Assembly: GCF_964213995.1 (NCBI RefSeq)
Contig: NC_135817.1
Span: 61,628,001-61,692,000 of the forward strand
Direction: 5' to 3'
Length of the DNA: 64,000 nucleotides
Source: Mustelus asterias
Lineage: Eukaryota
Shown here one piece after another: positions 10,436-63,669 of this stretch. The position numbers and the translations under genes were made by a program. The notes under the pieces are model-generated. The model was given only the letters and a program-made list of their open reading frames with translations, searched no databases and was not told the origin of the DNA. The first letter of the stretch is position 1; every line of letters begins with the position of its first letter.

Positions 10436-11490
10436 GAGGACAAGTTGTCTACATGGACTTTGGAAAGACCTTTGGCAGGGTACCGCACGGTAGGTTGTTG
10501 CACAAGGTTAAAACTCACAGGATCCAGGGTGAGGTAGCCAATTGGATACAAAATTGGCTTGATGACAGAAGACAGAGGCGGTTGTAGAACTGGAGACCTG
10601 TGTGACCAGCAATGTGCCTCAGGGATCGTTGCTGGGACCACTGTCATTTATCATTTATATAATGATTTGGATGCAAATTTAGGAGGTATGGTTAGTAAGT
10701 TTGCAGATGACAACAAGATTAGTGGCAGAGTGGACAGTGAAGGTTATCTAGGATTGCAATGGGATCTTGGTCAATTGGGCCAGTGGGCTGACAAATGGCA
10801 AATGGAGTTTAATTTAGATAAATGCGTGGTGATGCATTTTGGTAGATTGAACCAGAGCAGGATTTACTCAGTTAATTGTAGGGTGTTGGGGAGAGTTACA
10901 GAACAAACAGGTCTAGGGTACAGATTAATAGCTCCTTGAAAGTGGAGTCACAGGTGGATAGGATGGTGAAGAAGGCATTTGGCATACTTGGTTTCATTGG
11001 TCAGAACATTGAATACAGGAGTTGGGACATCTTGTTGAAGTTGTACAAGACGGCAACACTTGGAATACTTTGTACAGTTCTAGTCACCCTATGATAGAAA
11101 GGATATTATTAAACTAGAAAGAGTACAGAAAAGATTTACTAGGATGCTACCTGAACTTGATGATTTGATTTATAATGAGAGACTGGTTAGACTGGGACTT
11201 TTTTCCCTGGAGCGTAGCAAGTTTAGGGGTGATCTTATAGAGGTCTATAAAATAATGAGGGGCATAGATAAGGTAGATAGTCAACATCTTTTCCCAAAGG
11301 TAGAGGAGTCTAAAACTAGAGGGAATAGGTTTAAGGTGAGAGGGGAGATACAAAAGGGTCCAGAGGAGCAACTTTTTCCACATAGAGGGTGGTAAGTATC
11401 TGGAACAAGCTGCCAATGGTAATAGCAGAGGCGAGTACAATTTTGTATTTTAAAAAGCATTTAGACAGTTACATGTATAAGATTATATAA
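10436..11490 (+). mobile_element. CR1-type LINE 3' fragment (RT)
   Basis: SKFADDNKISG, WADKWQMEFNLDKC and LERSKFRGDLIEVYKIMRG; frameshifted. Confidence 0.9.
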
Positions 11491-19973: not shown

Positions 19974-20345
19974 TTAGAATGGAACCGGTGACAACTTTGT
20001 ATTGGATGTAATGTGACCAATGATAACAAGCTGTAAGGGTCAGCTGACCCAATAAACCATGGAACCAATTACAGAATGATGTAATAGTCAGCTGACCAAC
20101 TATAAATAAGAACCTGTTTGGAGTTGTGGGGAGCTTGGAGTGCTCCAGAGTGAGGCCCCAAGTTTGCAATAATGAAGTTTCTGTATTAAACCCTTTCTTT
20201 GATTTATAAATTGGAATAAGTTTTGTAGTATTTTTATTGTCTGCATTTGAAGAGTTCCTTCTGAGGTAGCATTCTATGTAAAGCTTTTTTTCCTCCTGTC
20301 TTTTGTCATAAATCAGGCCTTTGAAGATGATTAGTTCTGTGGCAA

Positions 20346-20445
20346 CAAAAACAGAAAATACGGGAAAATCTCAGTAGGTCTGACTGTATCTGTGGAGAGA
20401 GAATAGTGCCAACATTAAGTCTGGATGACTCTTGTCAGAGCCGAA
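20346..20445 (-). mobile_element. Degenerate copy of the short hammerhead-like element family
   Basis: AAATCTCAGTAGGTCTGACTGTATCTGTGGAGAGAGAATAG...GTCTGGATGACTCTTGTCAGAGC, homologous to the 30337 and 58585 copies. Confidence 0.6.
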
Positions 20446-20489
20446 GACAAGGAGATTAGTCCTGTGGCTCCCGCCATGTTTCCTCTAAT

Positions 20490-30287: not shown

Positions 30288-30336
30288 CGATGAACTTCCA
30301 AACACTTCTCCGTGCCATTTAGTTTAATTTAGTACC

Positions 30337-30532
30337 AAAAGCGAAAATGCTGGAAAATCTCAGCAAGTCTGGCAGCATCTGTAAGGAGAGAAAAAAGCTT
30401 TGACAAAGGGTCATCTGGACTCGAAAGGTCAGCTCTTTTCTCTCCTTACAGATGCTGCCAGACCTGCTGAGATTATCCAGCATTTTCTCTTTTGGTTTCA
30501 GATTCCAACATCCGCAGTAATTTGCTTTTATC
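30337..30532 (+). mobile_element. Short palindromic non-autonomous element with a degenerate hammerhead-like core
   Basis: About 50-bp inverted arms (about 30344-30399 and 30431-30486) enclose TTGACAA A GGGTC-ATCTG-GACTC GAAA GG TC. Confidence 0.7.
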
Positions 30533-30899
30533 CAGAGTTTAATTTAGTTTATTTATTAGTGTCACAAGTAGACTTACATTAACACTGCAATGAAGGTACT
30601 GTGAAAATCCCCTAGTCGCCACACTCGGGCACCCGTTCGGGTACACTAAGGGAAAATTTAGCATAGCCAATGCACCTAACCAATTTAATTAATTTAGTTT
30701 ACTAACTTTATTTATTGTCACAAGTAGGCTTTCTTTAACACTGCAATGAAGTTTCAAACTTGGTAATATTGCCCAGCTCCACCCCTGGCTCTCAGTTCTG
30801 TTTAATGCTGCCTAACTTGCTGAATAATTTAGCAGTTCCTGTTTTTATTTCAAATTTCCGAAATCCACACTGTTTCGCTTTTGTATTCTTTGTAACCCA

Positions 30900-34529: not shown

Positions 34530-34665
34530 ATACAAAATAAAAATACTGCGGATGCTGGAAATCAGAACTAAGAATAAAATGTTGGAAAGTAAACTCAGCA
34601 GGTTGGGCAGCATCTGTGGAGAGAAATAGAGTTAACTTTTCAAGTGGATAACCTTTCATCAGAAA
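34530..34665 (-). mobile_element. Single-arm copy of the short hammerhead-like element family
   Basis: Shares ATACTGCGGATGCTGGAA and CTCAGCAGG..GGCAGCATCTGTGGAGAGA. Minus strand 34631-34665 has CTGATGA A AGGT-TATCC-ACTT GAAA AG TT. Confidence 0.65.
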
Positions 34666-36916
34666 CTATCACACCTCGGCTTGTTGAACTGTGTTGGCTT
34701 CCATTTAAACAGCATTTTGATTGATTTGATTTACAATTCCCATCCTTGTTTTCCAGTTGACTTGCTTCTCCTATCTCTGACATCTCCTGCAGCACTACAA
34801 TCCGCCAAGATGTCTGTGCTCCTCTAATTCTGGCTTGAGGAGATAGAGATTGCCCTGGGTCAATTTATTCAGATTGTTATATTGCATCTGAGGGAAAGTT
34901 AATCTATGATTCAAATTCAAGGTGGTATTGTACAATGAGCTATTGAGACCACACTCCATTGGGGAAATGTACAAACTATAAATAAATTGTTCAACGTGGA
35001 CTAGGGTTTGTTTTCAGTGTCTTTCAGGTAAGATAACATGGGGTTTCTGCGATTATAAATTACATGCTGACAATGGCGTAATCTGAGATTTTTTTGGAAA
35101 TTCAGAATTTATAACACGCTGTGTTAATGTAGGGTGATTGTCGCAATGCCCATAGCTAATGAGGAAATATATGGGGGCAATCTTACCAAAGTTTGGCAGC
35201 ATATCAATTCTGGTATGAAAATGGAGTGGATCACATTGATAATTCCAGCAGAGGCAAGGCATGGTGCCCTCTGTCATGCCACCAGATTTTATAAACCCCA
35301 CCAATCAGACCGCTCCCAGAACTGGCGCAAATCTAGATTATTTGTCTCTTTTTTTCTCTGATTCATCAGGCAATTTTTCTTCTATTACAAAATTATTAAT
35401 TACAGTAATGCTACATATCTCTCTATATATTTTTCTGCCTTACTGCTTCCCTGGCAATGACTCTTCTGTTTTTAAATGTATCTTCTACAGGGAGACCCTG
35501 ACTGCATTGTTCTAATTCCTATTCCAAATGTCTTCTTTGGCATGAAGTTGGCCTCCTCACGACTTCTGCCTAGAACTAGCCAAGTCCCATCTACATTAAA
35601 GCCTTCAGATACATCAGGGTTAGCTAAGGTTTATGTCACAAATCTGTTTCAGGATTTGCCAAGACTTTTACTTCTAAAAACGTTCAGGCCTTTTTTTCAT
35701 ATTACTGATGTGTGATCGGTGAAATAGTAATCCGAGGGAATAAACATATTGTAATCACAAAGAATTGAAGAAATTAGGAAAAATTCCTTTGAGGTGGTTA
35801 GAGTGTGGAATTATCTGCTACAAGCAGTGGACTCTATGGAAGCAGAGTCCATAAATTTAAATGGGAGGCTGGACAGTTGTTTGAAAGTGAGGAGTGTGAA
35901 AGAATAAGGGAATGAACAGGAGAGTAAGACTAGACAGACAATCTAGCTTGTGGGGAATAAAACAGTAATACAATGTGATGTCTAAATGGTTGGCTTCTGT
36001 CTGTAATATTGTATCAATTTAACTCTGGGCTTCTGTCATGCCAACAATTGAACGTCTGTTGACTTAAAGGACTTTTAGCTTCTATTATGTCGAGTGACGT
36101 GCACCAACCCCTGCCACCCCACTGCTCCAGCTTGCAACGTGCAGTCAAAATCTACTCATATTTACTGAGCCTACTTGTTTCTTCTCATGCTTGCAGTGTT
36201 TTGTCCTCAATTATTAAATCGAGGACCTACATCAATAAAATTCCTTGGAAACTCCTTATTTTTCAGGTAGACAGATAATATTAAAATCTAATGACGCTTT
36301 TTAGAGCAATAGTCGAACTCCTTATGCTGTTTCCAACTGGATCCAGCTTATGATAAAATACTGTGTAAGGTAGTAGTCAACAGCCTCTTTAACATGGGTT
36401 CACTGTTTATCAGGATATCAATTTTTAGAGTTCTTCTGTTCAGATCCTTCTATGGCTTTGTCCCTCCGATCTATGTAACCTTGACCACTTATTTTGCTCT
36501 CCCACCAGTGACTGTGCTTTCCACCACCAAGGCCCGAGGCACTGGAATTTTGTCCCTAATTTTCTCTACTTCCTTTAGATACTCCTTAACTTCTACTTTT
36601 TGAACGATGTTTTTGATCACTTGTCCTAATTCTTTGGCATGGTGTCAACTTCTAATAATGTTCCTGTGAAGCAATTTGAGATTTTTACAACATCATAAGC
36701 GGTTACAAAACTGCATGTGGAATCCTTTCATTTATTAGCCAAGTTATAGAATACAAGAGTGGGTAAGTAATGAGACAACTTCTCAGAGGCCAGTGTCCCT
36801 TCACCAGATTGTGACTAAAGGATTTTCACAGTAACTTCATTGCAGCGTTAATATAAGCCTACTTCTGATACGAATCAATAAACTAAAACTCATTCTACTG
36901 GATTGGCCAGTTTTTT

Positions 36917-37200
36917 AAGTTTATTTATTAGTGTCACAAGTAGGCTTACATTAACGCTGCAATGAAGTTACTGTGAAAATCCCCTAGTCGCCACACTCCT
37001 GCGCCTGTTCTGGTACACGAAGGGAGATTTTAGTATGGCCAATGCATCTAACCAGCACGTCTTTCGGACTGTGGGAGCAAACTGGAGCACCTGGAGGAAA
37101 TCCATGCAGACACGGGGAGAATGTGCAGACGCCATACAGTGACCCAAGCTGGGAATTGAACCCGGTCCCTGGCACTGTGAGGCAGCAGTGCCACCGTTCT
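36917..37200 (-). mobile_element. V-SINE, tail B, with an inverted tail-B fragment at about 36810-36890
   Basis: Reverse-complement copy abutting a plus-strand tail fragment. Confidence 0.88.
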
Positions 37201-37519: not shown

Positions 37520-38060
37520 GAGGGGGGGTGGGGAGCAGCCAATGGCAGCTCTCGTTTCATGCGAGGCACCTCCGTCAAAGTGGGCGGATCCCTGGCGACT
37601 GTAAGACGAGATGCGATTGGCGGTAGTGGGGCCGGTGTCTCGTTTGCCATTGGGCGAATGGGTGTCAATCAGCGCTGGGGGGGCGGGGCGGGCGAGCTGG
37701 GTGTCAATCAGCCCCGGGGGGCGGGGCGGGCGAGCTGGGTGTCAATCAGCCCCGGGGGGCGGGGCGGGCGAGCTGGGTGTCAATCAGCGCCGGGGGGCGG
37801 GGCGGGCGAGCTGGGTGTCAATCAGCGCCGGGGGGCGGGGCGGGCGAGCTGGCTGTCAATCAGCGCCGGGGGGCGGGGCGGACAGGACAGGACAGCACCG
37901 GGTGGAGAAGGCGAGCCAAGCCGGGCCGGCCTGTGAAGGGGGGGGGGAAGCCGGATTGAAGAAGCCAAAATCCAGGTTGGTGCACTTTAGATGTGTTTTC
38001 TTTTTTTTATAAAGGGATAGAGATGAAAATAGCAGCGGTGTGGTTCCCATTTGGTGAGTG
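37520..38060 (+). promoter_or_regulatory. CpG-rich promoter and likely non-coding first exon of TMEM50B
   Basis: Only strongly GC/CpG-rich island in the window. CCAAT/ATTGG boxes near 37539, 37616 and 37649; many GGGCGG boxes; candidate donors CAG|GTTGGT (37976) and TTG|GTGAGT (38054). The next plus-strand coding exon is TMEM50B. Confidence 0.65.
37659..37881 (+). repeat. 38-bp GC-rich minisatellite, about 6 copies
   Basis: Unit TGGGTGTCAATCAGCGCCGGGGGGCGGGGCGGGCGAGC; GTCAATCAGC recurs at 37664, 37703, 37741, 37779, 37817 and 37855. Confidence 0.97.
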
Positions 38061-58205: not shown

Positions 58206-58584
58206 ATTCTGTATCTATTTCCTTCTTTTCCTTTTTAGTGCTGTAGCAGGATGGAATCCTGATTAGTGGGGTTCAAATATGAATGCATTGTAAAAACTGA
58301 CAACTTTTACATCGAAGTTAAAATTAATAGATTAATTTGCAAGCAAAATATTACAAGAGTATAGGGGCACCTAAACAGGATATAGATACTGGATTTGGAA
58401 CACAAGTATTTTAAATATCTTTCTAAAACAGATTGTGCAACATACATTTTGCAGTATAGCTTTGGATTTAGGTTTTTTTTGTTGGTTTTCAATGCTGTCT
58501 ATAGATGATGTGATTTCTGTGTTTTACTAGGGAATCTGCATTAGTTCCAGAAACTGAAATGGTTACTAAGAATAACCTGCCGTA

Positions 58585-58774
58585 TATAAAGTCAAAATAC
58601 TGCGGACGCTGGAATCTGAAACAAAAAGAGAATGCTGTTAAAAACTCAGCAGGTCTGACAGCATCTGTGGAGAGAGAATAGAGCCAACATTTCCTGACTC
58701 GAAACAATGGCTCTATTCTCTCTCCACAGATGCTGTAAGACCTGCTGAGTTTTTACAGCATTTTCTGTTTCTGT
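58585..58774. mobile_element. Palindromic copy of the same short element family
   Basis: Inverted arms 58631-58686 and 58708-58762 (CTCAGCAGGTCTGACAGCATCTGTGGAGAGAGAATAGAGCCA and its reverse complement). The centre retains GACTCGAAAC. Confidence 0.75.
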
Positions 58775-59135
58775 CTGCCATGTATAACTTAGCTTCTCGT
58801 GAGGGGTGGGGTGAAGCAGGCTGATGGTGGAAATCTAATTGCTCGTCAATTAAATCAAACCCAGTGAGCTATCCCGTACATAAAAATCACCGAGGATATA
58901 GATGCCATATCGATAAGCATAAAATTACTTAGAGCACCACTTTTAAATAGTCAGATCAAGAATCTAAGAATTGCACTAAAGCAAGTTCTTTTGATTACCT
59001 GCAATTTTTTGGAGAACTGGAAATGAGGATAATTAATTAACAGGGAAAAGCACTAGTTTAAAATTCAACAAAGTCTTTACTTTCTCCCTTTTGTATCACA
59101 CCATAGGGATTATCACAGGCTACTTCATTCTCTGA

Positions 59136-62025: not shown

Positions 62026-62790
62026 TAGAGTCAGAGGTTTACAGCATGGAAACAGGCCCTTTGGCCCAACTTGTCCATGTCACCCTTTTTTTATTAAACC
62101 CCTAAACTAATCCCAATTGCCCGCATTTGGCCCATATCCCTCTATACCCATCGTACCCATGTAACTATCTAATTGCTTTTTAAAAGACAAAATTGTACTC
62201 GCCTCTACTGCTACCTCTGGCAGCCTGTTCCAGACACACCACCCTCTGTGTGAAAAAATTGCCCCTTTGGACACTTTTGTATCTCTCCCCTCTCACCTTA
62301 AACCTATGCCCTCTAGTTTTAGACTCCCCTTCCTTTGGGAAAAGATATTGACTATCTAGCTGATCTGTGTCCCTCATTATTTTGTAGACCTCTATAAGAT
62401 CACCCCTCAGCCTCCTACGCTCCAGAGAAAAAAGTCTGTCTATCCAACCTCTCATAACTCAATCCATCAAGTCCCAGTAGCATCCTAGTAAATCTTTTCT
62501 GCACTCTTTCTAGTTTAATAATATCCTTTCTATAATAGGGTGACCAGAACTGCACACGGTATTCCAAGTGTGGCATTACCAATCCCATCTCCTGTATTCA
62601 ATGTTCTGACCGATGAAACCAAGCATCTCGAATGCCTTCTTCACCACTCTGTCCACCTGTGACTCCACTTTCAAGGGACTATGAACATGTACCCCTCGAT
62701 CTCTTTGTTCTGTAACTCTCCCCAACGCCCTACCATTAACTGAGTAAGTCCTGCCCTGGTTCGCACTACCAAAATGCATCACCTTGCATT
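62026..62790 (-). mobile_element. CR1 LINE 3' fragment (same subfamily as 10436-11490)
   Basis: LERRRLRGDLIEVYKIMR and MHFGSANQGRTYSVNGRALG; followed by a plus-strand CR1 piece at about 62795-63100. Confidence 0.9.
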
Positions 62791-63669
62791 TGAATAGATA
62801 GAGAGAGAAACTATTTTTGCTTGTTCAAGCAAGTCTAGGACTAGGGGGCACAGTTAAAAATTAAAGACAGACTTTTCCGGAGTGAAAACACTTTGACAAA
62901 AAGTGGTAGACGTTTGGAACTCACTTTTGCAAATGCTAGATAACTGGTGAATTTTAACATTGAGGTAGAAAGATTTTTGTTCACCAAAGATATTAAGAGA
63001 TATGGGACAAAGAACCCATGTGGAGTTAGGTCACAAATCAACTGTGATCTCCTTGAATGAAGGAACAGGCTTTGAGGAGCTACATGACACCTGTTGTAAC
63101 ACATGTTTGTACCTCTGGATGGCAGACTAGCAAAACTACGTTCAATAGAGAGAGAAAACTGCCTGAGTTTACAGGGAGATAACTTGCTTGGAAGGAGGTA
63201 GAAGTTTTAAAAAAAATCATGTCAAATTAGTTGAACAATAAAAGTAATTAAATTTAAAGAAAATTATTAAAGAAAATACTTGAAGATGCTGTGAATGCTG
63301 GAAATGAAAACAGCACATTCCTCGCAGAAACATTCAGCAGCCTCGTGTTTCCTGATGTCGGTGGGCCTGCAGATAACCATGAGAAAATTGCTTATGATTC
63401 TGTGACGCTAATGTTTGCCGTAAGTTGTAATATCACAAAATTACAGAACTGTCGCAGTCACTTGCTCACCCTAGCAAATTATCATGGGATCTTAAGTCAC
63501 CATACAAACTACTCCAGCTACAGAACCTTCTGATGTCCCAAAAATGCTGATGGAACCCCTGAGAAACATTCTTATTATGTTGGAGTTAAACCACAAAAAT
63601 TGATTGTTTTTAACGTAAATTATACCAACATAAAAGTCTTTTCTGTTTCTTATATACATTTATCAGTAG

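Follow-up and report, generated by a model that had tools for sequence, protein, structure and literature searches.

The 64,000-nucleotide stretch of the Mustelus asterias genome analysed here (the window) carries at 30337-30532 a long non-coding hairpin with a hammerhead-like core in its loop, and the question it raises is whether such a structure is the unit of an independent family processed by its own ribozyme or the remnant of another mobile element. The hairpin itself is genuine, with a fold of -111 kcal/mol (z = -15) that none of 200 shuffled sequences equalled. The inserted DNA extends slightly further, as a 202-bp segment at 30334-30535 flanked by a 13-bp target-site duplication AGTTTAATTTAGT, whose left and right copies lie at 30321-30333 and 30536-30548 on the forward strand; the preliminary description had the hairpin right but missed the duplication and with it the true ends. 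With element positions numbered from the first base, A, of the AGCT with which hammerhead stem I starts (+1, window 30396), the predicted cut falls after +35. The long arm, 30396-30535 on the forward strand, covers +1 to +140 and ends in a one-sided "tail" of about 36-40 nt (30496-30535), as delimited by the bimodal outer ends of the family and by comparison with PMC11167929. The inverted short arm, 30334-30399 on the reverse strand, covers +36 to +101 and lacks a tail; on its inner side it ends at the predicted cut site, and the AGCT there is common to both arms. The arms measure about 62-66 bp, longer than the earlier estimate of about 50 bp. The site of insertion is the AT-rich end of a different interspersed repeat (30536-30770), and three polypyrimidine-YAG acceptor-like sites as well as a 22-codon upstream frame lie in the arm at 30440-30535.

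The loop contains a minimal type I hammerhead motif (30396-30434, forward strand), identified from its sequence, fold and family covariation. Stem I is formed by AGCU/AGCU (30396-30399 and 30431-30434), followed by the core UUGACAA (30400-30406), an extra A, stem II GGGUC/GACUC, GAAA, GG and UC, with the predicted cut after C30430. This is the loop as first described, and its proposed topology is borne out both by the layout of published minimal type I hammerheads and by covariation of stems I and II. Across 23 distinct rows from three subfamilies, 90.9% of the positions in the two stems are paired, against 20-43% in slid controls, and two-sided changes occur at four pairs, although the rows were chosen by hand and represent few independent, subfamily-level events. 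The subfamilies differ by a C-G to U-A change in stem I and a G-C to A-U change in stem II. In the window copy the predicted pair probabilities are 0.46-1.0 for stem I and 0.99 for stem II, and exposing the core costs 2.3 kcal/mol. An Rfam scan of the window detected no hammerhead family at E<=10 and returned only hairpin-driven microRNA matches. Elsewhere in the window, a second, unrelated hairpin formed by opposed repeat-family ends (36826-36978) likewise has weak microRNA-model matches only, a weak U6 snRNA match (11087-11194; 22 bits, E 0.35) lies inside an inverted repeat pair with 62277-62574, and a GC-rich tandem repeat at 37640-37919 has about six copies of a 38-bp unit with 97-99% identity.

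The core departs from CUGANGA at two positions, which are both partners of the 3:8 pair (U3:A8). One of these changes had been taken as consistent with CpG decay, a reading that gives way to a compensatory pair common to the family, as TTGACAA occurs in 287 exact 40-mers genome-wide. By hand count, the first 100 of 6,760 core-pattern matches comprise 72 U3A8, 21 C3G8, 6 C3A8 and one U3G8. The switch to U3:A8 is one subfamily-level event and not a set of independent changes, and it plausibly arose by decay followed by compensation, as G8 sits in a CpG in the sister subfamily. The window copy has in addition a private change, GAAACGTC to GAAAGGTC. The family, in the same 287 exact 40-mers, has a palindromic ACGU that could form stem III of a dimer (15.1-16.1), which the C-to-G substitution at 30427 destroys in the window copy (AGGU). 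Since the palindrome is lost and there is no monomeric stem III, the hammerhead of the window copy is likely inactive. The motif is nevertheless inherited from a parent element in which it is conserved.

The family is abundant, as had been presumed: a 35-mer of the arm has at least 8,648 exact matches in the genome, the degenerate core pattern has 6,760, and initial candidates from a DNA search number 3,195. The insertions discussed below were sampled from the first 100 listed of the 8,648 matches, which fall in the first 14.7 Mb of one contig and yielded 88 insertions; because the 35-mer used for sampling is located downstream of the cut site, the choice of insertions does not depend on their junction type. 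Two near-identical pairs of loci, L289/L290 and L318/L319 (130 kb and 385 kb apart), agree in their flanks as well and are either segmental duplications or assembly haplotypes. When 20 copies outside the window were combined into a profile, it recovered all five relatives that had been named within the window and gave no match in the reversed window; of the five, only the one at 58587 is palindromic. This insertion (58587-58775; E 3e-28) pairs a long and a short arm of a sister subfamily, lacks the 5′ half of the hammerhead and is flanked by a 13-bp duplication (58577-58589 and 58775-58787, two mismatches). On the reverse strand, 20343-20441 (E 2e-21) is a single arm of sister subfamily B without a tail, whose relatives have a C3:G8 core, with a 15-bp duplication at 20329-20343 and 20454-20468 (one mismatch). 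Also reversed is 34535-34663 (E 5e-26), a single arm with a tail from the older subfamily C, in which the core reads CUGAUGA, stem I AGUU/AACU and stem II AGGUC/GACCU. The remaining two are old arm fragments without a hammerhead, at 30805-30882 on the forward strand (E 4e-8) and, as a weak match, at 63283-63340 on the reverse strand (E 0.028).

The search for an autonomous Penelope-like element (PLE) with the same terminal repeat, suggested at the outset, led to a coding element. In longer copies the upstream sequence passes TATAAAT and a pyrimidine-rich repeat before reaching the C-terminus of a GIY-YIG endonuclease, and in 29 of 30 loci the arm lies 400-500 nt downstream of the endonuclease end, two of these loci being source copies. 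Locus L284 encodes a 732-aa frame with RVT_1 (E 6e-7), GIY-YIG (E 0.006) and the linker CNRRRCNTC (CxxxxCxxC), while the GIY-YIG domain scores (E 0.003-0.006) are weaker than the Pfam cut-off; a PDB sequence search with the frame returned nothing meaningful. A single reading frame carrying a reverse transcriptase (RT) plus a GIY-YIG at the C-terminus is thereby linked to the terminal repeat, as expected of an endonuclease-bearing (EN+) PLE, and the other hallmarks of this class, a partial tandem copy (pLTR), an inverted copy, a one-sided tail of 30-40 bp and a target duplication, are present as well. A CX2-5CxxC linker between RT and EN defines Neptune/Nematis (PMC8557442), and by this linker and the domain layout the parent probably classifies as a Neptune-type PLE, the long arm of the window insert being its terminal-repeat end. 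Since terminal repeat, tail and ORF stand in tandem at L274, and L287 begins exactly at +1 and continues into the ORF, the arm is both the 3′ terminus of the element and the first 140 nt of its transcription unit. The Penelope origin proposed in the preliminary description therefore stands, although its independent non-autonomous family does not: the arm belongs to a coding element as its terminal repeat, the junctions vary, and the tail may be on either arm.

How the two arms came together can be judged from the ends of the sampled copies. The inner ends of 133 arms from the 88 insertions fall mostly at +1 to +4 (64), with nine at -5 to 0, 25 further upstream, 27 at +5 to +34, a single one at +35 to +37 and seven beyond +37. 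The peak at +1 is not due to palindrome microhomology, because it is also seen in single-arm copies, 15 of 43 of which end at -5 to +4 and none at the cut. The distance from TATAAAT to +1 is 30 nt in 48 of 51 copies of subfamily A and in all three of subfamily B despite a differing spacer, whereas in subfamily C the TATA is not clear. Judged from these sequences, +1 is likely the transcription start of the element RNA. Four contig sets presumed to derive from RNA cover the arm, as contigs that cannot show where transcripts start or end, and a cap-derived G precedes +1 in five of 16 cases, which is no excess. The peak is weak among 30 copies running from tail to ORF, in which three start at +1 to +4, six at +5 to +17, eight upstream, 11 beyond +37 and two at the cut.

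The outer ends are bimodal, at about +100 and about +136, and pair in a regular manner. Among the 37 two-armed insertions of the sample that could be classified, 35 combine a long and a short arm, two have two short arms and none has two long ones (eight were unclassifiable), and the same long-short pairing is found in all 31 classifiable insertions among the 42 genomic copies that have the junction of the window insert. Target duplications of 8-17 nt flank 39 of 71 testable insertions, compared with 0.3 in mismatched flanks, 17 long copies having been dropped. Non-CpG variants common to both arms of one insertion number 14 against 6.1 expected (p = 0.001), which is consistent with one source or one RNA for both arms, and conversion could have the same effect. 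Finally, the 43 of 88 insertions without an adjacent inverted arm, the varied junctions and the presence of the tail on one or the other arm agree with an assembly anew at every landing.

Taken together, the insert consists of two opposed PLE terminal-repeat copies, quite probably built at the landing site by two target-primed reverse transcriptions of uncleaved RNA, and the window hairpin is likely a dead two-armed stub of an abundant Penelope-type element. The element protein would nick both target strands about 10-15 bp apart, and each nicked 3′ end would prime at one of two internal start sites, both close to the transcript's 5′ end, the tail presumably being the segment between these two sites. 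Each cDNA would run off the 5′ end of the RNA after only 100-140 nt, and repair would then join the two cDNA ends, often through the self-complementary AGCT. In the window copy, annealing would have been between the AGCT at +1 of the long arm and the second one, at +36, of the short arm, with the hammerhead left in the loop. The scheme is in line with in vitro experiments in which a PLE protein, starting at two internal sites, extended both strands and used unprocessed RNA (PMC11167929).

A more specific version has somewhat less than an even chance. The thousands of copies could be frozen intermediates of Penelope insertion, in which one protein dimer copied one uncleaved RNA twice, once per start site, each cDNA running off at the capped start, which is the first base of stem I, in the manner of strong-stop DNA, before the ends were joined through AGCT. 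If true, this would explain the inverted repeat and the one-sided tail of PLEs, and would imply that the ribozyme removes the cap region rather than makes the template.

Among the alternatives, the one that fares best retains the parent and the twin priming but derives the short arm of the window copy from hammerhead-cut RNA, so that its class of junctions would record cleavage in vivo; this appears unlikely, although some observations speak for it. The short arm ends exactly at the cut, the covariation shows that the motif is maintained, AA precedes 36 of 63 arm starts at the cut site, as it does in the window junction, and two of the 30 tail-to-ORF copies begin at +36. Loci L377 and L370, both of which begin precisely at the predicted cut and extend into the ORF (the former without an inverted arm), are a possible trace of cleaved full-length RNA. 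On the other hand, AGCT is found at both +1 and +36 and can anneal, so microhomology alone predicts the +1/cut junction without any cleavage. Arm starts at the cut (63 genome-wide) are not in excess of those at +38 (73) or +34 (126, many due to CpG decay) and are dwarfed by 9,114 that read through, and subfamily B is equally low with 39 starts against 6,034 read-through copies; its +2 control (286 matches) was excluded as contaminated by other subfamilies. Only one of the 133 sampled arms starts at the cut, and the first 30 cut-site matches listed include no single-arm insertion. The exact junctions genome-wide comprise 185 of the +1/+1 type, 42 of the +1/cut type, to which the window insert with its rare open-loop geometry belongs, and none of the cut/cut type. 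A small fraction of cleaved RNA may equally give the 42 +1/cut junctions, with about two cut/cut junctions then expected, so that the absence of any carries little weight. That the arm ending at the cut site is invariably the short one was a separate idea, which the counts reject (14 vs 17, p 0.72).

Assembly from uncleaved RNA must also be weighed against an independent non-autonomous retrozyme-like family, whose hairpin RNA would be processed by the hammerhead and mobilised in trans, as originally envisaged. In its favour are the high copy number, the open hammerhead fold of the window copy, the 42 exact copies of its junction and the description of PLE-derived retrozymes in vertebrates, including one chondrichthyan (bioRxiv 10.64898/2026.07.22.740005). 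Three loci within 7.7-11.0 Mb of one contig (L103, L106 and L127) also have one 18-nt junction insert in common; their flanks differ and their tail polarity is opposite, which hints at occasional local conversion or re-copying of a palindrome. This insert has two exact matches genome-wide, both among these three loci, and is absent from 174 other loci, and the idea that it is a spliced 5′ exon was rejected on these counts. Against an independent family, the junctions are heterogeneous, that of the window makes up about 1% of insertions, and its 42 copies have the tail on either arm (14 vs 17), differ in loop II and retain an intact core in only nine cases by motif test. Perfect palindromes would bury the ribozyme by about 38 kcal/mol in both of the two tested. 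Retrozymes form head-to-tail tandem units, each with a hammerhead, yet no such short-unit array was found in the 88 sampled insertions, and neither in the 133 sampled arms nor in the genome-wide counts, 63 at the cut against 9,114 reading through, are the unit ends set by ribozyme cleavage. Fewer than 1% of arms start at the cut, no more than at control positions, so that the processing by the ribozyme assumed in the first interpretation is not supported, and such a family is a rather remote prospect.

It is about as improbable that the fixed inner end reflects not a transcription start but splicing, or self-priming by fold-back on an antisense template (PMC3846280). All three subfamilies have around +1 a sequence resembling a 3′ splice acceptor (polypyrimidine-YAG, with YAG at +1/+2), the intron of D. 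virilis ends in helix I (PMC4209133), and blunt joining at +3 would explain the perfect palindromes equally well. At non-palindromic junctions, however, G+2 is retained in 27 of 34 cases, 16 of which retain A+1 as well; the AG is therefore part of the template, which argues against an acceptor at +2/+3 as the boundary, and no sample has a common upstream exon. Fold-back in turn leaves unexplained a second arm that ends at the other start site beside the target duplication. A MITE or another DNA transposon with terminal inverted repeats, for which the short, palindromic, non-coding and abundant copies might speak, can practically be dismissed, as the 88 insertions show neither symmetric inverted ends nor a fixed-length duplication, 43 have no inverted arm beside them and the arm forms one continuous sequence with an RT gene; the variable duplications (8-17 nt) and asymmetric ends agree with the retro-type insertion assumed from the beginning.

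The element itself is nothing unusual: both the retrotransposon class of which it is a stub and its ribozyme variant are known, and the suggestion that it may be poorly described is not borne out, since inverted copy plus one-sided tail as a layout, and likewise the U3-A8 variant, have been published (PMC8557442, PMC3846280, PMC4209133), with further literature on class, layout and ribozyme variant in PMC2377424, PMC6155905 and PMC7151607. A literature search found no paper on this shark family or on run-off at the transcription start; supplements, Repbase and Dfam were outside its scope, and a prior entry there is possible. The value of the family lies rather in a natural data set on a mechanism that the accounts in PMC11167929 and PMC8557442 leave open, and from the rule of arm pairing and the fixed inner end precise predictions follow for the existing in vitro PLE assay. 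The fixed U3:A8 pair further shows that a replicating vertebrate lineage has retained the catalytic core, although the RNA that is copied is almost never cut RNA.

The hammerhead closely resembles the minimal hammerheads (min-HHRs) described for metazoan PLEs by Cervera and De la Pena in 2014 (PMC4209133), an account of min-HHRs in which cartilaginous fish do not appear to be named. The common features are the type I topology, the 4-bp helix I, the extra nucleotide between 9 and 10.1, G10.1-C11.1, the palindromic 15.2-16.2, the lack of helix III and the dispersed and truncated state of most copies, and a U3-A8 covariation is reported there for Cercyon of Schistosoma mansoni. In contrast to that account, helix II is 5 bp rather than 7-8 bp, the U3-A8 form is the dominant subfamily of a vertebrate genome, and the fixed 5′ end of the copies is also where helix I starts. 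Animal non-LTR retrozymes, as presented in bioRxiv 10.64898/2026.07.22.740005, are likewise non-coding, derive from PLE terminal repeats and carry type I hammerheads, but are head-to-tail tandems with two or more ribozymes, whereas the present inserts lie head-to-head or singly and continue past the cut.

In overall layout, EN+ PLEs are known to insert with an inverted 5′-truncated copy and a one-sided 30-40-bp tail (PMC8557442, PMC3846280), and the Neptune-clade elements treated in these accounts have in common with the present family the head-to-head inverted repeat, the tail at one end, the target duplication, the palindrome at the junction, a TATA in the terminal repeat (A. vaga Pen2a) and the Cys linker between RT and EN. 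The same accounts attribute the inversion to self-priming or endonuclease resolution; here, in difference to them, the minimal two-arm, non-coding form dominates, with a sharp inner end and a near-strict rule of one long and one short arm. The closest mechanistic parallel is Poseidon of Anolis in vitro (Frangieh et al. 2024, PMC11167929), in which two internal start sites bracket the tail, both strands are extended, unprocessed RNA is the main template and a dimer is predicted. That account found no strand difference in the start site and does not address paired products, and the Poseidon hammerhead overlaps the start codon, whereas the long frame of the shark element seems to start about 30-80 nt past the tail.
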